A DNA stretch of 32,000 nt. It comes from Buchnera aphidicola (Neophyllaphis podocarpi). Lineage in GTDB: Bacteria; Pseudomonadota; Gammaproteobacteria; Enterobacterales; Enterobacteriaceae. How positions within the stretch are numbered: the first letter of the stretch is position 1; every line of letters begins with the position of its first letter. Both the position numbers and the translations under genes were made by a program. Where the stretch lies: positions 510,001-542,000 of the forward strand of contig NZ_OZ060386.1 in the NCBI RefSeq assembly GCF_964059055.1, written 5' to 3'. This document shows, in pieces, positions 2,087 through 29,817 of this stretch. Below the pieces are notes generated by a model that was not told the origin of the DNA, ran no database searches, and was given only the letters and a program-made list of their open reading frames with translations.

Positions 2087-2776
2087 TTAATTTTTTTCAA
2101 AAACTAAATTAAATAACCTTTTTCCATTTAATTTACTTTTTAATTCAAACTTAGTCTTTTCCCTACAGTTAAACAATAGATGATGTTTTTTATGTGATAT
2201 ATTTTTAAAACTTGTAATTTTAGAAATAATTTTTAGAATATTATTAACATAAGATTCAGAATCAGTAATAATATGTAGTATACCCTTAAAAATTAACTTA
2301 GCAAAAATTAAATCAATAAAATCTTTTTTTAATATTCTACGTTTATTATGTCTTCTTTTAGACCAAACATCAGGACAAAAAATTTGAAACTTTAATATAG
2401 AATTATCTTTAATCATATAGTACAATACATCAAACGCATCATAATAAATTAATTTTAAATTTTTTATATTGAGTGAGTTTATCTGTTTTAAACAATAGAT
2501 AATACCAGGTAAATATACTTCTATTCCCAAAAAATTCTTAGAAAAATTTTTAGAAGCAATATCAACGAGAGCGTTACCATAACCAAAACCTATATCTACT
2601 ATTAAAGAGTTATTAAAATCAAATAAATTATTAATATTAATTTTTTTAGTTAAAAAATTTATACCTGAATAGTTCCAAAATTTATTTAAAATATTTGTCT
2701 GATCTGTAGTGATTTTTCTTTTACGAATAACATAACTACGGATAGTACGTTTATAAGATAATTTTTTTTTAAACAT
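2087..2776 (-). CDS. trmB: tRNA (guanine46-N7)-methyltransferase
   Basis: 229 aa. IGFGYGNALV, FLGIEVY and FCPDVWSKRRHNKRR correspond to E. coli TrmB (IGFGMGASLV, FLGIEVH, FFPDPWHKARHNKRR). Confidence 0.9.
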   Translation of the reverse strand: MFKKKLSYKRTIRSYVIRKRKITTDQTNILNKFWNYSGINFLTKKININNLFDFNNSLIVDIGFGYGNALVDIASKNFSKNFLGIEVYLPGIIYCLKQINSLNIKNLKLIYYDAFDVLYYMIKDNSILKFQIFCPDVWSKRRHNKRRILKKDFIDLIFAKLIFKGILHIITDSESYVNNILKIISKITSFKNISHKKHHLLFNCREKTKFELKSKLNGKRLFNLVFEKN

Positions 2777-2881
2777 AATTTAATATACAATTAAAAGTTA
2801 TTATTCTAAAAATCAAAAAATATTATTCCATAGCAATATTATCAGTATTTTAATAAATAAACAATAAGAGTTATAAAAATA

Positions 2882-3121
2882 ATGAAAAATAAAATTTTTT
2901 GCAAATTTCTAAAAAAAATATCAAAAAAACAAGAAAATAAAGTATATCCAGGAAAATTAGGAGATAAAATATTTAAAGAGATATCTGAAGAAGCATGGAA
3001 AATATGGACACTACAACAAACTATTATAATAAATGAAAAACAGCTAAATATGTTAAAAAGAGAAGATAGAAAAATAATAGAAAATGAAATGATAAATTTT
3101 TTATTTAAAAATAAAAATTAA
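2882..3121 (+). CDS. yggX: Fe(2+)-trafficking protein YggX
   Basis: 79 aa. IFCKFLKK...YPGKLGDKIFKEISEEAWKIWTLQQTIIINEKQLNM is collinear with E. coli YggX (IFCTFLQR...[36 protein letters not shown]). Confidence 0.92.
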   Translation: MKNKIFCKFLKKISKKQENKVYPGKLGDKIFKEISEEAWKIWTLQQTIIINEKQLNMLKREDRKIIENEMINFLFKNKN

Positions 3122-3132
3122 AAAGCATAATA

Positions 3133-4575
3133 TTAAATTTTATGAAAAATAATTTTATATACATAATTAGAATAATCCTCTATATTTTTAATTATACGAA
3201 TAATATTAAAATCAAGCATATATTTTTTAGATAAAAAAAATAAATGTTCTCTATATAATTTAAAATAATTTTTGTTTAATTTATTTTTACAATGTAATAT
3301 CCAATTATTTTTTTCTTCAATATCTAAAGTATTTTCAAAGTTTCTAGATCTATAAAAAAATAGTAATAAAGTTAGTCTTTCATCAAAATTACATTTAGAT
3401 AAATTTATCTTACTCAATTTAAAACAATTAGATTGTCTAATGTGATTTATTATACATTTATCACGTGTACTAAAAAAATTTTTATAAAGCTGAGATTCCA
3501 CATCAGAATAAACAAGACTATTATTAATCTGGGAAAAAAAATTATATATTTTTTTTATAAAAAAAGAATTTTTTTTTAATATAGAAATATTATTAAATAT
3601 AAATTCTAAATTTATATTCAAACGTAATAAATCATCTGATCTAAGACAATTTAAAGACAAAATAACAGGACATTTATTAATGTACACAAAATTAATTGGT
3701 AAATAATACTTAAATCTCTTATTAAAAATATCTTTAATTTTATATTTATTAAGAATATTAAAATTTATTTTACTTAAATGATTTAAATCTTCTAATAAAT
3801 TACATGTTACTAATATATTTGCATTTTTAGGATGCCATATCAAAGGTGAAACAATCCCAATATTGTTTTTTTTAGCTCCAAAACAATTAGAAACATAAAC
3901 CAAAATTTTTTTGTTACTATTTAAAATATTTAAAAAACTATTTTTTCTTCTATTTTTAAATAAAAATAAAAATAACTTATTATAATTAATCTTTATTAAT
4001 TTTGCTAATTTAAGAGTAGCATAAACATCTGATATAGCATTATGAGAATTTAAATGAGGTATATTATTAATATTAGTAATATCCTCTAATTTAAAACTAA
4101 CATGACCATATTTATTAACTGGCCAACGTATTAATCCATCATAAGGTCGTAAAGCATGACAGGCTCTTAATAAATTCAAAACATCCCATCGAGAGTTACC
4201 ATTTTTCCAGCTCCAAGAGTAAGGATCTAAAAAATTTCTATAAAAAATATTCCTAGTAAATTCATCATCAAAATTAATATTATTATAACCTAAAATACAA
4301 GTATTTGGTTTATTAAAAATATCATAAATTAATTTAGCAAATTCGGATTCAATAAAACCATAACGTTGTACATATTGAGGAGTTATACGTGTAATTATTA
4401 TTGAGTTAGGATCAGGTAAATAATCTAGAGGTAATTTACAATAATAAAATATAGGATCAGAAATAATATTAAATTCTATATCTGTTCTAATACAAGCAAA
4501 TTGAGAAACCTTATCTTTTATAGGATCAGTGCCAAATGTTTCGTAATCATAAAATAAAAAACTAGGATTAAACAT
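3133..4575 (-). CDS. sbcB: Exodeoxyribonuclease I
   Basis: 480 aa. FLFYDYETFGTDP, ILGYNNINFDDEFTRNIFYRNFLDPYSWSW, NSRWDVLNLLRACHALRP and HNAISDVYATL match the DEDDh exonuclease motifs of E. coli SbcB over its full length. Confidence 0.93.
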   Translation of the reverse strand: MFNPSFLFYDYETFGTDPIKDKVSQFACIRTDIEFNIISDPIFYYCKLPLDYLPDPNSIIITRITPQYVQRYGFIESEFAKLIYDIFNKPNTCILGYNNINFDDEFTRNIFYRNFLDPYSWSWKNGNSRWDVLNLLRACHALRPYDGLIRWPVNKYGHVSFKLEDITNINNIPHLNSHNAISDVYATLKLAKLIKINYNKLFLFLFKNRRKNSFLNILNSNKKILVYVSNCFGAKKNNIGIVSPLIWHPKNANILVTCNLLEDLNHLSKINFNILNKYKIKDIFNKRFKYYLPINFVYINKCPVILSLNCLRSDDLLRLNINLEFIFNNISILKKNSFFIKKIYNFFSQINNSLVYSDVESQLYKNFFSTRDKCIINHIRQSNCFKLSKINLSKCNFDERLTLLLFFYRSRNFENTLDIEEKNNWILHCKNKLNKNYFKLYREHLFFLSKKYMLDFNIIRIIKNIEDYSNYVYKIIFHKI

Positions 4576-4648
4576 TAAATTTATATTTAAAAATGATTAT
4601 TAAATATATAATACATAATTATTAATAAAATATAAATAAAAATAATAA

Positions 4649-4693
4649 TATTATTAATAATTAATATATAATATATATTAATTATTAATAATA
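4649..4693. repeat. Perfect 45-bp palindrome, A/T only, with 22-bp arms around a central A at 4671
   Basis: I checked it base by base. Position 4649+k pairs with 4693-k for k=0..21, and pairing breaks at 4648/4694. It lies in the 135-bp divergent spacer between the sbcB start (4575) and the yeeX start (4711). Confidence 0.9.
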
Positions 4694-4710
4694 AAATAAA
4701 AAACAAAAAC

Positions 4711-5022
4711 ATGAATAACAATCAACAAAAAAAATCTTTTTCTAATGTAATAAAATTTGTACAAATGTTCAGGAGAAAAAATAAATTACAAAGAGAAATA
4801 ACTGATGTAGAAAATAAAATAAGAGATAATCAAAAGAGAATATTATTACTAGATAATTTACTAGAATATATTAAAACTGATATGAGCATTAAAGAAGTAA
4901 AAAAAATAATTAAAAGTATGAAACAAGATTATGAAGATAGAATTTATGATTATTTTTTAAAAAATGCAGATTTATCTAAGGAAAGAAAAGAAATTATGAA
5001 AGATATTAAAAATTACAAATAA
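4711..5022 (+). CDS. yeeX: UPF0265/DUF496 protein YeeX
   Basis: 103 aa. [38 protein letters not shown]...[26 protein letters not shown] closely follows my recollection of E. coli YeeX ([38 protein letters not shown]...[26 protein letters not shown]). yeeX lies a few genes from sbcB in E. coli. Confidence 0.75.
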
Positions 5023-5068
5023 ATTAATAATAATTTTTACAAAGTTAAAACAAAATTTAAGTATATAA

Positions 5069-5141
5069 CTCCTCCGACTGGACTCGAACCAGTGACATAC
5101 GGATTAACAGTCCGTCGTTCTACCAACTGAACTACAGAGGA
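5069..5141 (-). tRNA. tRNA-Asn (anticodon GUU)
   Basis: The reverse complement reads TCCTCTGTAGTTCAGTTGGTAGAACGACGGACTGTTAATCCGTATGTCACTGGTTCGAGTCCAGTCGGAGGAG. It forms a cloverleaf with anticodon loop CT-GTT-AA and is near-identical to E. coli tRNA-Asn. No CCA is encoded. Confidence 0.95.
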
Positions 5142-5311
5142 TTATTAAAATAATTATAATAATATTTTTTATTTTGTCAAGTGATCTTTATGCGAAAAAA
5201 TTATTTTAAAAAAATAAAGTATACAAATATTATTTTTTATTGTATAATTAACGTTAAATTCAGTTATTCTGTTTAAGATATATATAAAAATTTTAAAAAT
5301 AATAAAATTAT

Positions 5312-5384
5312 GGCCCTTTAGCTCAGTGGTAAGAGCAGGCGACTCATAATCGCTTGGTCGCTGGTTCAAATCCAGCAAGGGCCA
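5312..5384 (+). tRNA. tRNA with anticodon CAU, most similar to the lysidine-modified tRNA-Ile2 (ileX type) rather than elongator or initiator tRNA-Met
   Basis: The sequence is GGCCCTTTAGCTCAGTGGTAAGAGCAGGCGACTCATAATCGCTTGGTCGCTGGTTCAAATCCAGCAAGGGCCA. The cloverleaf is clear. The anticodon stem GGCGA/TCGCT, the variable region and the T-arm match my recollection of E. coli ileX almost base for base. It lacks the initiator features (C1-A72 mismatch, three G-C pairs in the anticodon stem). Confidence 0.9.
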
Positions 5385-5441
5385 AAAGTATTTATTTATT
5401 AAGCTAATTAAATTAAAAATTATAATATAACTGAGTTAATA

Positions 5442-6164
5442 ATGAATTTATTAATAAAAAGAAATAAAAACATACGCCCGATTAAATTTATAAAAAACTA
5501 TATTAAATTCAATAAAAGCTCGGTATTAATAGAATCAGGAAATACTAAAGTAATATGCAATGCATCAATAGAAAAAAAAATTCCTAAATTTTTAAAAAAT
5601 AAAAAATCAGGATGGTTAAGAGCAGAATACAGCATGTTACCTTATTCAACAAGTATAAGAAATAATAGAGAAATATTTAAAGGTAAACAAAGCGGAAGAA
5701 CTATAGAAATACAAAGATTAATATCTAGAATACTAAGAATGTCTATTGATTTAAAAAAATTAGATAACAAATCTACTATAGTAGTAGATTGTGATGTAAT
5801 ACAAGCTGATGGAGGTACAAGAACAGCTTCAGTAAATGGATCTTCAGTAGCTTTATATATTTTATTAAAAGAACTATATACTCAAAAAAAAATAGAAAAA
5901 AATCCATTTAAAAATTTAGTCGCAGGTATTTCAATTGGAAAAAAAAATAATAAACTATTCTGTGATATGAATTATAAAGAAGATTCATCAACAGAAATAG
6001 ATGTAAATATATTTATGAATGAAAAAAAAGAAATAATTGAAATTCAAGGAACTTCAGAAAAAAAACCTATATCTAAGAAAAATTTTTTTCATATATTAGA
6101 ATTAGCAGAAAAAAATATTCCTTTGATTCTAAATGCTCAAAAAAAAATATTAGAAAAAATATAA
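5442..6164 (+). CDS. rph: Ribonuclease PH
   Basis: 240 aa, collinear with E. coli Rph. Conserved blocks: RPIKFIKNY..GSVLIESGNTKVICNASIE, GWLRAEYSMLP, GRTIEIQRLISR, DCDVIQADGGTRTASVNGSSVAL. Confidence 0.94.
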   Translation: MNLLIKRNKNIRPIKFIKNYIKFNKSSVLIESGNTKVICNASIEKKIPKFLKNKKSGWLRAEYSMLPYSTSIRNNREIFKGKQSGRTIEIQRLISRILRMSIDLKKLDNKSTIVVDCDVIQADGGTRTASVNGSSVALYILLKELYTQKKIEKNPFKNLVAGISIGKKNNKLFCDMNYKEDSSTEIDVNIFMNEKKEIIEIQGTSEKKPISKKNFFHILELAEKNIPLILNAQKKILEKI

Positions 6165-6195
6165 AAGTAGTTTTGATAAGACAAAGTATAATAAT

Positions 6196-6845
6196 ATGAT
6201 ATATATTAAAAACAAATTTATTAATTTAATAATAAAAAAAAAGTATTACAATTTGGAAAATTTAAATTAAAATCAGGAAGAAATAGTCCATATTTTTTTA
6301 ACTCTGGAATTTTAAATACAGGTAAAGAACTACATATTTTAGGTAAAATATACGCAAAAATAATAGTAGAATCAAAAATTAAGTTTGATGTAATATTTGG
6401 AACAGCTTATAAAGGTATTCCTATAGTTACAGCAACAGCAATAGCTTTATCAAAATATTATAATTTAGAAATTCCTTATTGTTTTAACAGAAAAGAACAA
6501 AAACAATATGGAGATAAAGGAGAATTAATAGGAAGTAATATTAAAGAAAAAAAAATTATAATAATAGATGATGTAATAACAGCAGGAACATCTGTTAAAA
6601 ATTTAGAAAAAATTATAAAAGAGAAAAAAGCACAAGTAAAAGGAATTATAGTTGCATTAGATAGACAAGAAAAATTTCATGGAGAAGAAAATATATCACA
6701 ATACATAAAAACAAAATATGCATGTAATCTAATATCAATTATTACAATACAAGACATTATATCTTACATATCTAAGGAAAAAAATAAGAAACTATTTAGA
6801 AACTTAGAAAAAATGTGTAAATACTATATTAAATATAGTTTATAA
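6196..6845 (+). pseudogene. pyrE: Orotate phosphoribosyltransferase. The body is intact, but the ATG (6196) is out of frame with the rest because of an A9 run at 6234-6242. It may still be expressed through slippage.
   Basis: There is no entry in the ORF track. Hand translation of 6225-6845 shows no stop and reads ..KKKVLQFGKFKLKSGRNSPYFFNSG...YKGIPIVTATAIAL...PYCFNRKE...IIIDDVITAGTS...VALDRQE.. This matches E. coli PyrE, including the PRPP-binding VDDVITAGT motif. The ATG frame (MIYIKNKFINLII) stops at TAA 6268-6270. The gene follows rph, as in E. coli. Confidence 0.85.
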
Positions 6846-6865
6846 AAAATAATAAACACAAATAT

Positions 6866-7324
6866 TCATATTCCGGTATGTCCAAATCCTTTTTTTCCTC
6901 TTGTACTAATTTTAGTAAATTCACTAACTACATTTAATTCCACTTTTAATATAGGTATAAATACTATTTGAGCAATACGATTCCCTGGATGAATGGTAAA
7001 TGATTTATTACTACGATTCCATAAAGAAATCATTAAAGATCCTTGATAATCAGAATCAATTAAACCAATAGAATTACCTAATATAATTCCATGGATATGA
7101 CCTAATCCTGATCTAGGTAAAATTAAAGCAGTAATCAAAGGATCTTCAATAGATATTGCTATACCAGAAGACAACAAAACAGATTTATTAGGTTTTAAAT
7201 TTATTATATGATCATTACAAGATAATAAATCTAAACCAGAAGATCCAATAGTCTTATAAGAAGGTAAAGGAAATATATTGCCTATACGTTTATCTATAAT
7301 TTTAATATTTATTTTTTTTTTCAT
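6866..7324 (-). CDS. dut: dUTP diphosphatase
   Basis: 152 aa. [34 protein letters not shown] and [10 protein letters not shown] match the E. coli Dut motifs. Confidence 0.94.
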
Positions 7325-7708
7325 AAAAAAACCATTAATAAAAAATTAAAATATTTTAAATTTTTACAATTCAATAATATAATTATTAAAAATCTTATTT
7401 TATTAATTGTATTAAATTTAAAATAATAAATTTGTGTATATTATTTTTTATTTAAAATCATCATATTTAAAAATATAACATGATGATTATATAATAATTT
7501 TATTAAAAACAATATAAATTAAAAAATACTAAAAATTTTACATAATTATGTTTAAAAGAATAAATATTTATTTAAATAAAAATTTTAAACAGTAGTAAAA
7601 ATATATATTTTATTTTAAAAATTTTTAATTATTGATATCTTAATTAAATAAAAAACGTAAATTCAATCAAATAAATCTATTAAATTTTATATAAGAACTT
7701 AAAAAAAA

Positions 7709-8161
7709 TTATTTCTTAGATATAGCATTTACAATAAATGTAGTAGAAATATTTTTATAAGGACTAAAAACTACCTCATACTTTCCAACACTTCGTATTG
7801 TATTTGACAATAAATTAATTTCACTTTTATGAACTATAATACCTAAAGATTGTAAAGTATTAATTATGTCTCTTACACCTATAGAACCAAAAAATTTTCC
7901 ATCTATACTAGATTTAGAAGCAATATTTATCATCCCTATAGATTTAATTTGATCAACTTTATTTTTAGAAGAAATAATTTTTTGATCTATTTGTTTTTTT
8001 ATCTCTAATTTTTTATTTTCAAAATATGTAATATTTTTTTTAGTAGCTAATACAGCTTTTTTACTTGGAATTAAAAAATTATTAGCATATCCAGGTAATA
8101 CTTTAACAATATCTCCCTTATTACCTAAATTTGAAATTTTTTCTAATAAAATTATTTGCAT
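7709..8161 (-). CDS. rplI: 50S ribosomal protein L9
   Basis: 150 aa. MQIILLEKISNLGNKGDIVKVLPGYANNFLIPSKKAV compares with E. coli [37 protein letters not shown]. It is the last gene of the rpsF-rpsR-rplI cluster. Confidence 0.95.
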   Translation of the reverse strand: MQIILLEKISNLGNKGDIVKVLPGYANNFLIPSKKAVLATKKNITYFENKKLEIKKQIDQKIISSKNKVDQIKSIGMINIASKSSIDGKFFGSIGVRDIINTLQSLGIIVHKSEINLLSNTIRSVGKYEVVFSPYKNISTTFIVNAISKK

Positions 8162-8212
8162 TATATAAAATCCTTAAAATTTTAAAATAAATTAAAATAA
8201 TAAATTGAATAA

Positions 8213-8440
8213 TCAATTATGTTTATCAGTATAAGGTAATAAAGATAAAAATCTAGCTGTTTTAATAGCTTTAGATAATTGACGTTGATATTTAGCTTTT
8301 GTACCAGTAATGCGACTAGGAACTATTTTACCACTTTCTGTTATATAATTTTTCAACATAACTATATCTTTATAATCTATTTCTGTAATTCCTTCAGCTG
8401 TAAAACGACAAAATTTTCTACGACGAAAGTAACGTGCCAT
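8213..8440 (-). CDS. rpsR: 30S ribosomal protein S18
   Basis: 75 aa. [53 protein letters not shown] is almost identical to E. coli S18. Confidence 0.97.
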
Positions 8441-8526
8441 TTTTTTTCCTTATTAAAAATTCGAAATAAAAAACTAATTTTACATTAAATTTTATTTAAA
8501 ATTTTATAATTCTAAAAGATAAATTT

Positions 8527-8901
8527 TTATAAACTAACAAAAGATTTATTTTGAATGATATCTTTTTTATCAAAATTATCATCTTTTAATTTTGCAATAG
8601 GAGAAATTTCTGTATATGCTTTTTTTACTTTTATAATTAAATTTCTAATAATATATTTGTTAAATCTAAAATTATCTTCTAATTTTTTTATTGTATTTAA
8701 ATCTACCTCTAAATTCATTAAAATATAGTGCGCTTTATGCAATTTATTTATAGTATAAGATAATTGACGTCTACCCCAATCTTCTAAACGATGCAATATA
8801 CCATTATTATCTTTTATAATTTTTTTATAATTTTGAACTATACTTGTAATTTCTTCGCTTTGATCAGGATGAATTATCAATATAATTTCATAATGCCTCA
8901 T
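8527..8901 (-). CDS. rpsF: 30S ribosomal protein S6
   Basis: 124 aa. [16 protein letters not shown]...[29 protein letters not shown] matches E. coli S6. Confidence 0.96.
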
Positions 8902-9067
8902 GAAAGTATCCTTATATAAATTTATAAAATATTTTATATTGAATTGTTTGAATAATAAATAACTTTTTACAATATAAAATTTATTTTTTAAATTTAATTA
9001 AATTTTATAATATAATTTTATTTTAAAAAATTTAATTAATGATAGATTATTATACTACATATAAAAA

Positions 9068-11269
9068 TTAATTAAAATAAACAAAAGAACAATTTATTTT
9101 ATGCTCATATAAATTTACATCAGTAATTTTAACTTTTATTGTATCTCCTAAATAAAAAACTTTTTTAGAAAATTGATGGATTAATTGTTGATTTAAAATA
9201 TCTAAATAAAAAATCTTATTATTAATAGAATTAATACAAATAAAAGAGTCAATAAATAAATTATTTAATTTAACAAAAATACCTAAAGAAGTAATATTAA
9301 AAATAACAGCATTAAATATCTTGCCAATCTTAGATTTCATAAAATTACATTTTAACCAATCAATAACATTTTTAGTTACTTCATCTGCACGTCTTTCTGT
9401 CATAGAACATAAAACACCTAACTTTTTCATATCTGTTATACTATAATGATAACCACCAGAACTTAAATTATTAAACTTATAATGAAATAATTTTTTCTTT
9501 TTAATTAAGTATTTTATAGAACGATGCAATAAAAGATCTGGATATCTTCTAATAGGAGATGTAAAGTGAGCATAATGAGACAAAGATAATCCAAAATGAC
9601 CTCTGTTCTCTGAATCATAAATAGCTTGTTTCATAGATCTTAAAAGATTAATCTGAATTATTTCTTTATGTGAATGTTTTTTTAAATTATTTAATAATAA
9701 AGAATAATTCAAAGAACTAGGATTCTTACCTCCTTTAAGAGTTAAACCAAATTTTTTTAATAAATAACGAAAATTAATTACATTATTAGTATTTGGTTTA
9801 TCATGATCTCTAAACAAGGAAGGTTCAGAATATTTTAAAACAAGGTCAGCTGAGGAAATATTTGCTAATATCATACAATATTCAATCAAACGATGAGAAT
9901 TATTTCTTTTAGCACGATAAATATATTTAATATTATTTTGTTCATCTAAAATAAATTTTGGTTCTGGATTTTCAAAATTAATACTTCCTCTATTTTTTTG
10001 AGAAATTTCTAGAACAGAATAAAAAAATGATAATTTATTTACAAAATCAATAATATTTTTTTTATATTTATTAATTATTTTTTTATTACCTCTCCATATA
10101 TTATAAACTTCTTCATATGTCAAACGTCCATGAGAAACAATTACAGCTTCATAATGTTTGTAATTAATAATTTCTCCTGAACTTGATAATTTAATCTCAC
10201 AAATCAAACATAATCTTTCAAGATTAGGTTTTAGAGAACAAATATCATTTGAAAGTTTTTCTGGAAGCATAGGTATAACTTGAAAAGGAAAGTAGATTGA
10301 AGTACCTCTTTTTTTAGCCTCGATATCTAATAAAGTTCCAGGTTTTACATAATAACTTACATCAGATACAGCTACCCAAAGATTCCAACCTATTCCTGAT
10401 ATTTCTTTACAAAAAATAGCATCATCAAAATCATGAGCATCATCATTATCTATTGTAATAAAAGGTAAATTTCTTAAATCAACTCTGTTTTTTAAAATAT
10501 TTTGAGATATAGATTCTTTAATTTTAGAAATTTTATTTTTAATTTTTTTAGACCATTTATGAGGAACTTCATAAGTACGTAAAGCAATTTTGAGAGCTAA
10601 ATTAGTAGTAATTTTTTTTCCAAGTATTTCAACAATTTTACCTACAGCTTTACTAGAAAAATTATTAGGACGTTTGATTAATTCTACAACAACAACAGAT
10701 TCATTTAATTTATCTAAATTAAATCCATCAAATATTAAAATTTTAAAATTAAATCTATTGTCATTTGGAACAACAAAATTATGATTTTTATCATTATAAA
10801 AAAATTTACCAACTATTTTTCTATTTTTTAAATTTAATACTTTTAATATTCTAGCTTCCTGTTTTTGAGTTTTTTTAGTTTGATGAATTTTAGCAAGTAC
10901 AACATCTCCATGAATACAAAGTCTCATTTGACGAGAAGAAATCCATAAATCATTTTTTAAAGTAATACTTTTTAAAAATCCATATCCATCTCTATGACCT
11001 ATTACTATACCTTTAATTAAAGTAATATTCTCAGGTAAAGTATAATATTTTTTTTTAAAAGAAATTATTTGACAATCACGCTCCATAGCTTTTAAACGTT
11101 TTTTTATAATTTTGTTTTGTTTTAATCCTTTTATACCTAAATTGATTAATAGTTCTTTTTTATTAATAAATTTTTTATTTTTACTAAAGAAAGATAAAAT
11201 AAACTCTCTACTAGGTACTGGATTAGTATATTTTTTAGATTCTCTTTTATAAAAAGGATCTTGTATCAT
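9068..11269 (-). CDS. rnr: Ribonuclease R (VacB)
   Basis: 733 aa. RNB-domain motifs are present: ITIDNDDAHDFDDAI, RGTSIYFP, HFGLSLSHYAHFTSPIRRYPDLLLHR. A C-terminal S1-like segment is also present. It sits next to purA, as in E. coli. Confidence 0.93.
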   Translation of the reverse strand: MIQDPFYKRESKKYTNPVPSREFILSFFSKNKKFINKKELLINLGIKGLKQNKIIKKRLKAMERDCQIISFKKKYYTLPENITLIKGIVIGHRDGYGFLKSITLKNDLWISSRQMRLCIHGDVVLAKIHQTKKTQKQEARILKVLNLKNRKIVGKFFYNDKNHNFVVPNDNRFNFKILIFDGFNLDKLNESVVVVELIKRPNNFSSKAVGKIVEILGKKITTNLALKIALRTYEVPHKWSKKIKNKISKIKESISQNILKNRVDLRNLPFITIDNDDAHDFDDAIFCKEISGIGWNLWVAVSDVSYYVKPGTLLDIEAKKRGTSIYFPFQVIPMLPEKLSNDICSLKPNLERLCLICEIKLSSSGEIINYKHYEAVIVSHGRLTYEEVYNIWRGNKKIINKYKKNIIDFVNKLSFFYSVLEISQKNRGSINFENPEPKFILDEQNNIKYIYRAKRNNSHRLIEYCMILANISSADLVLKYSEPSLFRDHDKPNTNNVINFRYLLKKFGLTLKGGKNPSSLNYSLLLNNLKKHSHKEIIQINLLRSMKQAIYDSENRGHFGLSLSHYAHFTSPIRRYPDLLLHRSIKYLIKKKKLFHYKFNNLSSGGYHYSITDMKKLGVLCSMTERRADEVTKNVIDWLKCNFMKSKIGKIFNAVIFNITSLGIFVKLNNLFIDSFICINSINNKIFYLDILNQQLIHQFSKKVFYLGDTIKVKITDVNLYEHKINCSFVYFN

Positions 11270-11519
11270 ATTTTTATTTCCACATTCTATTTCTAAAAAT
11301 ATAAAATATTATTTTATTTTTAACTTTATATAAAAATATAGCTAAAAAAATTAAATACCAAATAAAAAAATTTTAAATAAAATATTAAATTTTTAAAAAT
11401 ATTAACAATATATATTACATTATTAAAAATTAACATTAAATATATAAAAATTAAAATAACTATTTAAAATAAATATCATAGTAATAAAAATATAAGTTTA
11501 ATTTCATTTATATGATTTT

Positions 11520-13837
<2,318 letters not shown>

Positions 13838-13907
13838 GTTAAAGTTTTATTCCTTTTTATAGTATTAAAAATTAAATACATCAATTTGATAACAAAAACT
13901 TGTATAA

Positions 13908-15068
13908 TTATTTATTATCTAAGTATTTTTCTAAATTATTATTATAATTTTGAGTTTTACTCTCAGGTTTATCAATATTTTTTATAAATTCATTTTTATT
14001 ATTTTCATAATTAAGATTGTTTTTAAAAAAACTAAATGGCAATAATAATAAATTATTTTTATTAGAATTAATAAAAATTTTATTAGAACGACTCAATATT
14101 CTTTCCATTGACTCTATATACAGTCTTTCTTTTGTAACCCTTTTAGAAGATTTATATTCAGGTAAAATTTTTAAGAATCTAGAAATTTCACCTTTAGCTT
14201 CTAACACTATTCTCGATCTATAAGCTTTAGATTCTTCAATTATTCTTTGAGCTTGTCCATTAGCTCTAGGTTGAACTTCGTTAGAATAAGCTTCAGCTTC
14301 TCTTATATATTGTTCTCTATTTTCTCTAGCAGCTATAGCATCATCAAAAGAATCTTTAACTTCTTCTGGAGGTCTAGCTGTTTGAAAATTAACATCTAGT
14401 AAAGTTATACCCATTTTATAAGGTTTTATAGTTTTTTCTATTTCATTTTGAGTATCGCCTCTAATTATTGTTCTTCCTTCAGTCAAAACTCTATCCATAG
14501 AGGATTTACCTATAACGCCTCTAAGAGCACTATCTGTAGCTTGACGCAAACTTTCATCTGGATTATTTACATTAAAAAGATAAAATTCAGGATTTGTTAT
14601 TTTATATTGCACATTCATTTCAACTTTAACAACATTTTCATCAGAAGTTAACATTATACCAGATGCTGATAATTCTCTTACTGTTTCAACATTAACTGTT
14701 TTAACATTATTTATAAAGGTAGGTTTCCAATTCAAACCAGGCATAACTATATTACTAAATTTACCAAAACTAGTAACAACACCTCTATCTGTTTCTTTTA
14801 TTGTATAAAAACCACTTAATATCCAGGAAATTATGCAAACTATTAAAATAAAATAAAAAGTTTTTTTAAATCTTGTTCGTGATAAATTATCATTATTAAA
14901 ATTATTTTTATAAAAAAATCCAAAAATATTTTTTAAAAAATTTAATTTATTCTTAGTAAAATATTTTTTTTTGCATACATTGTCATTTAAACTATTTTTA
15001 TATATATTAATTTTTTTTTCCAAATTATTAAAATAGTGTTTATTAATATTAGATTTAACATAAATCAT
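13908..15068 (-). CDS. hflK: FtsH protease modulator HflK
   Basis: 386 aa. GFYTIKETDRGVVTSFGKFSNIVMPGLNWKPTFI and LDVNFQTARPPEEVKDSFDDAIAARENREQYIREAEAYSNEVQPRANGQAQRI are near-identical to E. coli HflK blocks. Confidence 0.94.
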   Translation of the reverse strand: MIYVKSNINKHYFNNLEKKINIYKNSLNDNVCKKKYFTKNKLNFLKNIFGFFYKNNFNNDNLSRTRFKKTFYFILIVCIISWILSGFYTIKETDRGVVTSFGKFSNIVMPGLNWKPTFINNVKTVNVETVRELSASGIMLTSDENVVKVEMNVQYKITNPEFYLFNVNNPDESLRQATDSALRGVIGKSSMDRVLTEGRTIIRGDTQNEIEKTIKPYKMGITLLDVNFQTARPPEEVKDSFDDAIAARENREQYIREAEAYSNEVQPRANGQAQRIIEESKAYRSRIVLEAKGEISRFLKILPEYKSSKRVTKERLYIESMERILSRSNKIFINSNKNNLLLLPFSFFKNNLNYENNKNEFIKNIDKPESKTQNYNNNLEKYLDNK

Positions 15069-22972: not shown

Positions 22973-23054
22973 ATTTTAATTAAAATTTTATATTGAAAAT
23001 AGTTTAATTTTTATATACAATAATAATTATTAATATATTTATTTAAAAAAGTTA

Positions 23055-23127
23055 GCGGGAATAGCTCAGTTGGCAGAGCGCAACCTTGCCAAGGTTGAGG
23101 TCACGAGTTCAAACCTCGTTTCCCGCT
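23055..23127 (+). tRNA. tRNA-Gly (anticodon GCC)
   Basis: The sequence is GCGGGAATAGCTCAGTTGGCAGAGCGCAACCTTGCCAAGGTTGAGGTCACGAGTTCAAACCTCGTTTCCCGCT. The cloverleaf has loop TT-GCC-AA and is close to E. coli glyV/X/Y. No CCA is encoded. Confidence 0.95.
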
Positions 23128-23340
23128 CAATTAAATAAATTAATTTAAACTTTTTACAAAATTGAATTCTTAAACTAAAAAAATTAATTTTAAAAATTTT
23201 AGAAAATATCATATTAAAAATAAAGAATTAAAAACATATCGAAAAAAACTTAAAAATTAATATTTTAAATTAAAATGTTATTCAAAAAATAATAAATCAT
23301 TCACATAAAAAATAATAAATTTTATGCTCAGTATTTAAAA

Positions 23341-23431
23341 ATATAATTAATATTAAGATCGAGTATTTATCTTTTATTTGAATTTTCTATTCAAATAAAA
23401 GATAAATACTCGATCTTAATATTAATTATAT
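23341..23431. repeat. Perfect inverted repeat: 43-bp arms (23341-23383 and 23389-23431) around a 5-nt loop TTTCT
   Basis: I checked it base by base. All 43 positions pair, including the G/C-containing core AAGATCGAGTA / TACTCGATCTT. It lies between the convergent 3' ends of tRNA-Gly (+) and rpmE (-). Confidence 0.95.
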
Positions 23432-23504
23432 AATTATTTACTATTATATATTAATTTTTATATAATAAATAAAATAATAATTTAGAATTTGATAAATTTA
23501 AATT

Positions 23505-23708
23505 TTATAAAAATTTAAATTTTTTATTAAACTTTTCAACTCTCCCTTTATTATCTAATACACGTTGTTTTCCAGTATAAAATGGATGACATTTTGAACA
23601 AACATCTATATTTATATTACTAGAAATAGTAGAAAATATTTTTATAATATTTCCGCAGGAACATTTAGCTTTTACTGAAATATATTTAGGATGTATATTT
23701 TTTCTCAT
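23505..23708 (-). CDS. rpmE: 50S ribosomal protein L31 (zinc-ribbon type)
   Basis: 67 aa. [14 protein letters not shown] and [13 protein letters not shown] give the four-Cys form. GAGGA lies upstream of the ATG. Confidence 0.96.
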
Positions 23709-23940
23709 AATAATTCCTCGTAGAGATTGAAAAATTTCTTTTAAAAATATATATATAATTGTTAATAATATTATATTTATGTTATAAATGATAAAATAAC
23801 ATTATATTATTTAAGTACATGTATTTAATAACATTATTAATTATACCAAATAAAAGAGAATATAAAGTTGCAAAAAGATTATATAATTAAAATATCAAAA
23901 ATAAAAAATAAAAAAAAAGATTAAATCTTATATATCTAGA

Positions 23941-24200: not shown

Positions 24201-24731
24201 GTGACAACAATATTAAGTATACGCCGTAATAAAAAAGTAGTTATTGGTGGTGATGGACAAGCTACTTTAGGTAATACTATAATGAAAAGTAGTGTGAATA
24301 AAATTAGATCTTTATGTAATGATAAAGTAATAGCAGGTTTTGCTGGAAGTACAGCAGATGCATTTACATTATTCGAGCTTTTTGAAAAAAAGTTAAGTAT
24401 GTATCAAGGGCAATTACAACGTTCAGCAATTGAATTAGCCAAAGACTGGAGAACGGACAGAATTTTAAGAAGACTAGAAGCTTTATTAGCTGTTGCAGAT
24501 AAAAAAATTTCACTGATAATATCAGGAAATGGAGATGTAATACAACCTGAAAACGATTTGATAGCAATAGGATCAGGCGGTCCTTATGCTCAATCTTCTG
24601 CAAAAGCTTTAATAGAAAATACTAAAATGAATGCTAAAAACATTGTAATAAAATCATTAGAAATAGCAGCAAGTATTTGTATATATACAAATAATAATTT
24701 TACCATTAAAGAATTAGCTTCAGAAAAGTAA
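24201..24731 (+). CDS. hslV: ATP-dependent protease subunit HslV (GTG start)
   Basis: 176 aa. (M)TTILSIRR provides the N-terminal Thr nucleophile. [42 protein letters not shown] and GSGGPYAQS are near-identical to E. coli HslV. AAAGGA lies upstream of the start. Confidence 0.96.
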
Positions 24732-26959: not shown

Positions 26960-27970
26960 TCAACATCTATCAAAAGGAAAAGTGATAATATCTTGAATTT
27001 TTGTGCAATTAAAATATATCATCATTAGTCTATCCAATCCTAAAGCAACACCAGAACAAAAAGGCATATTTTTACTAGATAAAGCTTTTAAAAATAAATA
27101 ATCTATTTTATGTTTTGGTAATCCTAATTTAGTTCTTCTATCATTATTTAATTTAAAGCGCTTTTTTTGTTCATTATGATTAGTTAATTCACAAAAACCA
27201 TTTGCTAATTCTATTCCTTTAAAAAAAACTTCAAAACGATCAGCTACTCTTGAATCTTCATCATTTATTTTAGCTAGTAAAGCCTGTTCTTTAGGAAAAA
27301 AATAAATAAATAGTAACTCAAATTCAGATAAATATGGTTGAATAGATACTGTAAATAATATTTCTAATAAATCACTTTTATTATAATTTTTATGTATTAA
27401 ATGTTGTAAATTTTGATTTAAAATAATTTTATATAGTGTATTTTTCTTAATAGTTAAAGGATTTATGTTTAAATATCTTAAAAAAATTTTTTTATAAGAA
27501 ATAAAATCAATTTTTTTAAAATTTATAATTTTTTTTATAAATTTTTTGACTTCATATATCAAATCATGCATATTGTAATTAGGATGATACCATTCCAACA
27601 TAGAAAACTCAGGATTGTGATTATCACCATATTCTCCATTCCTAAAACTATGGCATATTTGATATATAGGACCACTACCACATGCAAGTAACCTTTTCAT
27701 ATGATATTCAGGACTAGTAATCAAAAATAAGTTTTTTATAGAAATATTATTTGAGGATTTATATGTAGTATTAAACGATTCTAAATATATATCATTAGAA
27801 GAAAAATGACTAAGTATAGGAGTATCTACTTCTAAAACATTTATAGAACTGAAAAAATTTCTTATTTTTTTTATAATTAATGCTTTTTTAAATAAATTAT
27901 CAATAGTTATTTTAGATTTCCATTTATTTTTATTCATATTTTGAAATAAAGTTTTAATGAAAAGTATCAT
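26960..27970 (-). CDS. epmA: EF-P (R)-beta-lysine ligase (PoxA/YjeA/GenX). An alternative start is the ATG at 27937.
   Basis: 336 aa. Class II aaRS-like motifs are present: LITSPEYHMKRLLACGSGPIYQICHSFRNGE, HNPEFSMLEWY, RFEVFFKGIELANGFCEL and CSGVALGLDRL, as in E. coli EpmA. Alignment length favours Met-12 as the true start. Confidence 0.92.
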   Translation of the reverse strand: MILFIKTLFQNMNKNKWKSKITIDNLFKKALIIKKIRNFFSSINVLEVDTPILSHFSSNDIYLESFNTTYKSSNNISIKNLFLITSPEYHMKRLLACGSGPIYQICHSFRNGEYGDNHNPEFSMLEWYHPNYNMHDLIYEVKKFIKKIINFKKIDFISYKKIFLRYLNINPLTIKKNTLYKIILNQNLQHLIHKNYNKSDLLEILFTVSIQPYLSEFELLFIYFFPKEQALLAKINDEDSRVADRFEVFFKGIELANGFCELTNHNEQKKRFKLNNDRRTKLGLPKHKIDYLFLKALSSKNMPFCSGVALGLDRLMMIYFNCTKIQDIITFPFDRC

Positions 27971-28051: not shown

Positions 28052-28549
28052 ATGAATAAATTAGCAATTTATCCAGGAACTTTTGATCCTATTACATATG
28101 GTCATATAGACATTATAAATAGAATATCAAAAATATTTCATAAAGTAATAATTGCAGTAATAAAAAATCCTAAAAAAAAATTAATGTTTAAAGCTTCTGA
28201 AAGGATAATATTAATAAAAAAATCAATTAAAAAAAACAAAAATATTAAGGTGTTAATTTTTAATGATTTAATAATAAACTTTGCGATAAAAAATAAATCA
28301 AATATATTAATTAGAGGTATAAGAAATACTAATGATTTTAATAAAGAATATGATTTTGAAAAATTCAATAAATTAATGAATAAAGATATAGAAGTGATAT
28401 TTCTATTTTCATCTAAAAATTTATCTTTTTTATCCTCATCTTTAGTAAAAGAAATAGCTGCTTATAAAGGTAATTTAAAAAAATTTGTTCCTTTATGCGT
28501 ACATCAAGCAATGAAAAAAAAAATAAAATTAACAAAAAATATTAATTAA
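28052..28549 (+). CDS. coaD: Phosphopantetheine adenylyltransferase
   Basis: 165 aa. IYPGTFDPITYGHIDII (the T/HxGH nucleotidyltransferase motif) and SSSLVKEIA match E. coli CoaD. Confidence 0.94.
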   Translation: MNKLAIYPGTFDPITYGHIDIINRISKIFHKVIIAVIKNPKKKLMFKASERIILIKKSIKKNKNIKVLIFNDLIINFAIKNKSNILIRGIRNTNDFNKEYDFEKFNKLMNKDIEVIFLFSSKNLSFLSSSLVKEIAAYKGNLKKFVPLCVHQAMKKKIKLTKNIN

Positions 28550-28623: not shown

Positions 28624-29367
28624 ATGAAAATTATTTTTACAAAACCATTTAATAACAGATACTATAATTTAGTAAAAAAACTAAACATTTCGAATATATA
28701 CAAATCCAATATGGAATTAATTATAAAATCAGATTTTATATATATAAGATATAAAAATAAACATTCTAGTATATTTTTTATAGACTTTAATTCAAAAAAA
28801 ATGAATTATAGATGCAATTTAGCTAACATAAAAAATGAATTAATAGCAAAATCAGTAGGTATAAAAAATAAATACTTTCCTAAAATAATAGATGCAACAG
28901 CAGGATTAGGAAATGATTCATTTATATTATCTTATTTAGGATGTAAAGTTATCATGATAGAAAGAAATCCTATAATATATCTTTTATTAAGAAATGCTTT
29001 AGATAGAACTTATTCAAATACAACAACTTTAGGATGGACAAAAAAAAGATTGAGATTAATATATCAATCTAGTTTTGAAATATTTAAAAAAATAAAAAAA
29101 AAACCAGATGTAATATATTTAGATCCTATGTTTCCTATTAATAATAAAAAAAAATCTAAAAGTAAAAAAGAAATAGAATTACTAAAAAAAATAGTAGGAG
29201 AAGATAAAGATGCTGATACATTATTAAAATATGCAATATCTTTAGCAAGTACAAGAGTAGTTGTAAAAAGACCTCTTTATGCTTCTCCATTAAATAACAT
29301 AAAAACATCATCATTTATTAAAACAGGTAATTATAGATTTGATATTTATTTTAATAGAAAAAAGTAG
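28624..29367 (+). CDS. rsmJ: 16S rRNA (guanine1516-N2)-methyltransferase (YhiQ)
   Basis: 247 aa. SVGIKNKYFPKIIDATAGLGNDSFILSYLGCKVIMIERNP, VIYLDPMFP, VVVKRP and RFDIY parallel E. coli RsmJ. Confidence 0.88.
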   Translation: MKIIFTKPFNNRYYNLVKKLNISNIYKSNMELIIKSDFIYIRYKNKHSSIFFIDFNSKKMNYRCNLANIKNELIAKSVGIKNKYFPKIIDATAGLGNDSFILSYLGCKVIMIERNPIIYLLLRNALDRTYSNTTTLGWTKKRLRLIYQSSFEIFKKIKKKPDVIYLDPMFPINNKKKSKSKKEIELLKKIVGEDKDADTLLKYAISLASTRVVVKRPLYASPLNNIKTSSFIKTGNYRFDIYFNRKK

Positions 29368-29394: not shown

Positions 29395-29817
29395 TCATAA
29401 AGGTACAATTAACATATCTATAGGAACAGAGTTAATAAATTGACGTACATAAGAAATAAATTTACTCCAAAAGTCTTGATGATGTCCAAAAATTACTAAA
29501 TCTATTTTGTGTATTTTTATAGATTTTATTAAAGATTTCACTAAATCTCCATTAGAATTTATAATTTTATTAAATTTAAAGTTTGATTCTTTAATAAATC
29601 TAATGAGTTCGTTATAAATAAATTCTTTTTGATTTTTTTTTTCTATATTACTTATATTTACATCTATGAGACCAGTATATAAATCAGAATAATTAATATT
29701 TACATGAATTAAAGAAATTTTAGCTTTATTAAGTTTAGCTATTAAAATAGCTTTAGAAATTAAAATTTTACTCTCAGGAGAAAGATCTATAGCTACTAAA
29801 ATATGTTTATAAGACAT
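29395..29817 (-). CDS. uspA: Universal stress protein A
   Basis: 140 aa. MSYKHILVAIDLSPESK, LIHVNINYSDLYTGLIDVN, GHHQDFWSK and DMLIVPL are near-identical to E. coli UspA. Confidence 0.95.
   Translation of the reverse strand: MSYKHILVAIDLSPESKILISKAILIAKLNKAKISLIHVNINYSDLYTGLIDVNISNIEKKNQKEFIYNELIRFIKESNFKFNKIINSNGDLVKSLIKSIKIHKIDLVIFGHHQDFWSKFISYVRQFINSVPIDMLIVPL

Follow-up and report, generated by a model that had tools for sequence, protein, structure and literature searches.

The pyrE gene of Buchnera aphidicola (Neophyllaphis podocarpi) carries a one-base frameshift in a run of nine adenines (A9), which parts its only usable start codon from an otherwise intact reading frame. We consider it very probable that the gene is functional and that full-length orotate phosphoribosyltransferase (OPRTase, the PyrE protein) is made through recoding at the A9 tract, by slippage of RNA polymerase, of the ribosome or of both. 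The evidence is a conserved frameshift with purifying selection on either side of it. Slippage-compensated frameshifts are a known phenomenon in endosymbionts, and the pyrE case is a rediscovery of it, now with explicit selection tests and a ribosomal slip site. In the following, the window is the whole stretch of 32,000 nucleotides that was analysed (G+C 20.9%), and all positions refer to it. Its proteins are exact matches to those of an ENA assembly of 559,180 bp (Rph, CAL4325638.1; Dut, CAL4325646.1; L9, CAL4325655.1).

The pyrE locus and its product

Directly upstream of pyrE lies rph (RNase PH, 240 aa; 5442-6164, + strand; CAL4325638.1). The two genes share their orientation and are separated by a spacer of only 31 nt (6165-6195) before the pyrE ATG, and hence they are probably co-transcribed. 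The rph-pyrE region of E. coli carries a UTP-sensitive attenuator. The 31-nt spacer leaves no room for an attenuator of the E. coli type, and transcription presumably runs on from rph into pyrE free of this control. On the other side, dut (152 aa; 6866-7324, - strand; CAL4325646.1) runs towards pyrE from the opposite strand, and the stop codons of the two genes are 20 nt apart. The gene order rph-pyrE-dut is found in the window and in four other Neophyllaphis-Buchnera assemblies, and the convergent arrangement of pyrE and dut recurs in four other Buchnera loci (L005-L008).

The gene falls into two segments on the + strand. The first (6196-6242) is read in the frame of the ATG at 6196-6198 and comprises this ATG, codons 1-13 (MIYIKNKFINLII) and the lysine run; continued in the same frame it gives MIYIKNKFINLIIKKKYYNLENLN, 24 codons that end at TAA 6268-6270. 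The second (6243-6845) is the body of the gene, 201 codons from V17 up to and including the TAA stop, with intact OPRTase motifs. Owing to the A9 run at 6234-6242 (+ strand), the ATG is one base out of frame with this body. The body frame is open from 6225 to TAA 6843-6845 (206 codons) and is closed to any upstream start by a TAA at 6222-6224 (+ strand), just 5' of the tract. It contains no ATG, GTG or TTG before codon 197 (6813), and the ORF listing shows no ORF of more than 30 aa between rph and dut. The preliminary description of this DNA had noted the empty ORF track, the positions of the ATG, the A9 run and the upstream TAA, the 206 open codons and the missing start, and all of its coordinates match ours. 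Another A9 run within pyrE, at 6547-6555 (+ strand), is in frame (GAA AAA AAA ATT).

The chance of 206 codons without a stop at the base composition of the window is approximately 8e-10, and 28 out of 28 stop-free stretches of at least 120 codons in the window are genes, which places the pyrE open frame beyond chance. Internal initiation was considered and ruled out: no canonical start precedes codon 197, and ATT or ATA first appears at codon 29, where the ATT is already beyond the essential K26-F35 loop. Other disrupted genes were looked for in the window and none was found; the only other large ORF gap (22973-23940) corresponds to tRNA-Gly and rpmE.

Adding one A to the tract gives a 216-aa protein that scores 187.9 bits against the TIGR00336 pyrE profile (cut-off 106.8), covering profile positions 2-173 of 173, and that matches E. 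coli OPRTase 1ORO with an E-value of 2.4e-64. The alignment with 1ORO puts residue 5 on residue 5 and is ungapped across the tract, as had been claimed for the N-terminus on the addition of one A. The earlier claim that a full PyrE is encoded also holds, with all named motifs present: the body translation contains KLKSGRNSPYFF, YKGIP, PYCFNRKE, IIIDDVITAGTS and LDRQE, and SGRNSPYFFNSGILNTGK is a further peptide from it. The PRPP-binding and catalytic motifs (K26/S/G/R, YKGIP, FNRKE..K103, DDVITAGT and LDRQE) all fall in columns that do not vary when the protein is aligned with six homologues. After the submitters' own protein (CAL4325644.1), the nearest protein is 57-58% identical, and a search of genome contigs with the restored PyrE found no relative.

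Other Buchnera have an in-frame KKK at the position of the tract (TTT AAA AAA AAA GCA or TTA AAA AAG AAA GTA) and a protein of equal length. In Neophyllaphis the codon preceding the tract is ATA, and an intact gene would need A10 (ATA AAA AAA AAA GTA). Judged from these codons, A9 is a 1-nt deletion within an old lysine/poly(A) tract and not a mis-start.

Selection on both halves of the gene

Sister loci were fetched using RpsR (window 8213-8440) as the handle, which gave four further assemblies. These are CP135039, from Buchnera of N. podocarpi isolate 25, and CP135042, from Buchnera of N. varicolor (PMC11193766), together with independent Logan re-assemblies of SRR29340287 (the CP135039 sample) and SRR29340286 (the CP135042 sample). 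All five assemblies, which represent three independent samples and two laboratories, agree in the A9 run, the out-of-frame ATG and the stops on either side, and the sole indel in the five-assembly pyrE alignment is found just 3' of the pyrE stop codon. The comparison of tract length and frame among sister strains, proposed in the preliminary description, thus returns the same A9 and the same frame break, N. varicolor included.

To quantify selection, 12.2 kb of the window (2212-14439) was aligned to CP135039 and CP135042. The pyrE body differs from that of CP135039 by 10 synonymous changes and 1 non-synonymous change (dS 0.09, dN 0.002), and the resulting dN/dS of 0.023 is the lowest non-zero value among the genes compared. 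Non-zero values in neighbouring genes range from 0.06 to 0.58, and rpsR is without non-synonymous change. When the same body differences are scored in the two wrong frames, the ratios of synonymous to non-synonymous changes are 1:10 and 0:11, and under neutrality the probability of at most one non-synonymous change among 11 is approximately 8e-7. The 13 codons of the leader contain two differences (6219 T/C and 6225 T/C) that are synonymous in the ATG frame only, and no non-synonymous difference.

Indels give the same picture. Divergence between the window and CP135039 is 6.3% in intergenic DNA and 2.0% in pyrE, and intergenic DNA has 29 indel events in 1,763 nt, against none in pyrE, where 10.7 would be expected (P = 2e-5). 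Homopolymers are the main indel sites in the compared lineages: among runs of at least 6 bases, 7 of 20 intergenic runs changed length, but none of the 101 genic runs and none of the 7 runs within pyrE did. The only genic indel in the 12 kb compared is located at the 3' end of sbcB (window 3133-3150, - strand), where a 1-nt homopolymer indel at approximately 3144 alters the extreme C-terminus of exonuclease I. This protein is 478 aa long in CP135039; both CP135042 and the window ORF give 480 aa, and the ENA annotation, in which another start was probably chosen, gives 483 aa.

The comparison spans a modest divergence (dS about 0.09-0.10) and only two deep lineages. Within this range, the shared A9 and the pattern of substitutions and indels indicate that the frameshift is older than the split of the compared lineages and that strong purifying selection acts before and after the tract, in the ATG frame and in the body frame respectively. 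This agrees with the preliminary description, which had found the long open frame hard to square with a decaying pseudogene. Selection on the two halves in their own frames in turn implies translation across the tract, which is in all likelihood the only account of such a two-frame pattern.

Routes across the tract and competing readings

The proposed history starts from an ancestral A10 that would have become A9 through an old, now fixed 1-nt deletion, parting the start and 13 codons from the rest of pyrE. The A9 run is itself a candidate site for slippage by RNA polymerase, through which some transcripts would carry A10. Read from the ATG, the sequence at the tract is ATA AAA AAA AAG TAT and contains A_AAA_AAG at 6237-6243 (+ strand), in the phase of a -1 ribosomal slip site of the dnaX type. 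Beyond this heptamer the -1 frame stays open to 6845. A ribosome shifting by -1 here would continue at GTA 6243 in the body frame. Either route, or both together, would lead to the identical 216-aa protein (..LIIKKKVLQFG..), and unshifted decoding would give a 24-aa peptide ending at 6270. Our guess is that the split between the routes is roughly even, with transcription slightly favoured, and we infer that the level of PyrE is lowered. The preliminary description had proposed reduced expression through A9-to-A10 slippage in transcription; its view of a functional gene behind a frame break is supported, and the specific route and the lowered level that it named are one possible version of the rescue.

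Given that both routes produce the same protein, the junction peptide (..IIKKKVLQ..) cannot separate them. The preliminary description had suggested the peptide IIKKKVLQFGK as a test of transcriptional slippage, a use it does not have because a -1 ribosomal shift gives the identical protein. That description overlooked the phasing of A_AAA_AAG (6237-6243), as well as the prior annotation of the 216-aa CDS by the submitters. A_AAA_AAG arises automatically whenever an in-frame (AAA)n-G tract loses 1 nt, and hence transcriptional rescue should not be the default assumption for this class of frameshift.

In bacteria, nine consecutive A or T are enough for efficient slippage, and the heptamer A_AAA_AAG shifts very readily when one tRNA-Lys decodes AAA as well as AAG (PMC5009743). 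The window contains no tRNA-Lys gene, but the genome likely has a single tRNA-Lys, given that the related CP135039 genome has 31 tRNAs in total (PMC11193766).

It is possible, although we would put it forward only tentatively, that rescue is mainly translational, with -1 shifting on A_AAA_AAG dominant and RNA polymerase slippage minor; this version is nested in the explanation above and does not exclude it. It is favoured by the correct phasing of the heptamer at 6237-6243, from which a -1 shift lands exactly on GTA 6243, and by the rarity of the phased heptamer in intact window ORFs (3 in 27 kb). In addition, E. coli RNA polymerase slips less readily on A runs in the coding strand than on T runs (PMC6260861), and the Buchnera slippage case named there is A10, not A9. 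However, there is no SD-like element upstream, the first G after 6198 being that at 6243, and no downstream stimulatory structure in 6225-6330 (MFE -8.1 kcal/mol, shuffle mean -9.6, z = +0.59). With both dnaX stimulators absent, the ribosomal contribution would be basal only. The phase bias of the heptamer is explicable by codon usage alone, and published evidence from endosymbionts points to heterogeneous transcripts.

AAAAAAG occurs 28 times in intact window ORFs, as AAA_AAA_G (21), AA_AAA_AG (4) and A_AAA_AAG (3), and the shift-prone last phase is found in the ORFs at 24201-24731, 26960-27970 and 28624-29367. This skew may reflect selection against the shifty phase or merely the rarity of AAG codons. 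The 21/4/3 distribution was set aside as evidence because it is inseparable from codon-usage bias.

If slippage is efficient enough for pyrE, then in-frame runs of 9-10 A elsewhere must yield a matching fraction of out-of-frame product. Should slippage rescue pyrE, such products are either a genome-wide cost or else evidence of a low slippage rate. In-frame A9 runs are present at four places in rph (5572-5580, 5884-5892, 5939-5947 and 6139-6147), codons 2-4 of dut contain the run at 7312-7321 (T10 on the + strand), and further in-frame runs of 9-10 A are found in intact genes at 28514-28523, 29094-29103 and 29633-29642.

Heterogeneity could instead reside in the DNA. Buchnera is highly polyploid, as is well established, and minority A10 genome copies kept by replication slippage might supply PyrE under an A9 consensus, with homopolymers being where most indels arise in these lineages. 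We find this improbable, since the consensus is A9 in three out of three samples, an A10 allele that conferred a benefit would be likely to spread, and no intact PyrE of the Neophyllaphis lineage is called from any Logan contig, the submitters' CAL protein being the only one.

Recoding might also be more than a repair. Slippage at an A run with a G behind it could vary in yield with the nucleotide pools, through pausing for GTP or ATP. If selection kept the frameshift in place as a means of gain control over pyrimidine synthesis, PyrE output would track the purine/pyrimidine balance or be held deliberately low. The sole hint in this direction is that reversion from A9 to A10 was fixed in 0 of 3 lineages, over the same time in which 7 of the 20 intergenic runs of at least 6 bases changed length, and maintenance for gain control is decidedly doubtful.

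That pyrE is a true pseudogene, lost too recently to show decay, is very unlikely. RefSeq and both CP records are without a PyrE protein, and gene loss in Buchnera usually begins with a single-base indel in a homopolymer, according to Moran 2009 as cited in PMC3017870. However, the frameshift is common to lineages at dS of about 0.1, and since their split the gene has gathered 12-13 synonymous changes, 1 non-synonymous change and no indels. A truly lost gene, in contrast, left no trace. In the other Buchnera loci (L005-L008) an inositol-phosphatase gene of approximately 250 aa (Pfam Inositol_P) is located between dut and rplI, and tblastn finds no trace of a remnant in the 384-nt dut-rplI spacer of the window (7325-7708). 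This spacer, which has about nine indels among the three lineages, shows the state of a truly lost gene in this genome.

Among runs of at least 9 bases in the window, 22 of 28 are inside intact ORFs, and therefore homopolymer calling is not generally unreliable in the window assembly. The alternative offered in the preliminary description, a homopolymer sequencing or assembly error in an ordinary pyrE that truly has A10, is extremely unlikely: homopolymer length is a classic source of error, and purifying selection on pyrE would be expected in that case too, but A9 is common to five assemblies from three samples and two laboratories, with two assemblers used for two of the samples, the 22 other runs of 9-10 bases keep frame, and the submitters curated the frameshift and did not correct it.

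Known systems, annotation and host labels

The precedent invoked in the preliminary description is borne out: poly(A) frameshifts rescued by transcriptional slippage are described in Buchnera and Blochmannia (Tamas 2008 and Wernegreen 2010, via PMC3017870; 10.1101/2022.08.28.505559), an example being a conserved poly(A) frameshift in pheA in Buchnera of Periphyllus/Chaitophorinae. The pyrE case resembles the Tamas 2008 class: the genome is that of an extremely A+T-rich endosymbiont, a single-base indel within a long stretch of A is the one defect of the gene, the frameshift is conserved between diverged lineages under continued purifying selection, and curators annotate the gene as functional. 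In pyrE the tract is A9, one A short of the A10 required, and the gene is free of further stops or indels; the frameshift is conserved in five assemblies from three samples at a dN/dS of 0.023. Unlike that of pyrE, the Buchnera tract named in PMC6260861 is A10.

Other systems are related more by mechanism. In Thermus thermophilus dnaX, a nine-base run likewise brings plentiful insertions, +1 or longer, into the mRNA (PMC5009743), but there slippage truncates the protein and gives a 1:1 ratio, whereas in pyrE it would compensate a genomic deletion. E. coli dnaX has the identical, correctly phased A_AAA_AAG, the same logic of tRNA-Lys re-pairing and the same -1 direction. It differs in having an upstream SD-like element and a downstream stem-loop, neither of which is present in pyrE, and its shift leads to a second, shorter product, whereas that in pyrE would restore the only useful one. 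The rph-pyrE pair is also involved in E. coli K-12, where the rph-1 frameshift is said to lower pyrE expression, a finding reportedly made by Jensen in 1993. Cells there tolerate strongly reduced PyrE as well, although that frameshift is in rph and acts via polarity/attenuation, whereas the one in Neophyllaphis is inside pyrE itself.

The databases disagree on this gene. The protein submitted as CAL4325644.1 is 100% identical to the restored protein over 216 aa, but it has a CAL accession and no WP_ accession, which means that RefSeq (PGAP annotation) gives no PyrE protein. In CP135039 and CP135042, the protein accessions of Rph, Dut and L9 are consecutive, and hence no PyrE was called in either record. 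A preprint (10.1101/2022.08.28.505559) from a group whose study includes Buchnera of Neophyllaphidinae sets out a policy of annotating genes with A/T-homopolymer frameshifts as functional, following Tamas 2008 and weighing conservation among close strains. We infer that this group submitted the window genome. No paper was found on the pyrE frameshift of Neophyllaphis Buchnera specifically. On the comparisons made here, the selection evidence settles the annotation conflict in favour of a functional pyrE. A metabolic reconstruction based on the RefSeq or CP records would wrongly deny de novo UMP synthesis to Neophyllaphis Buchnera. For conserved slippage-compensated frameshifts, pyrE adds a well-controlled case, with two deep lineages and with contrasts to both intergenic DNA and a truly lost gene.

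The same alignments bear on the host labels. The pyrE region of the window is 99.2% identical to that of CP135042 (N. varicolor) and 97.4% identical to that of CP135039 (N. podocarpi 25), and its intergenic divergence is 0.7% from the former and 6.3% from the latter, despite the ENA label N. podocarpi. That the window is much nearer to the N. varicolor genome than to that of N. podocarpi 25 suggests host misidentification or a cryptic host species.
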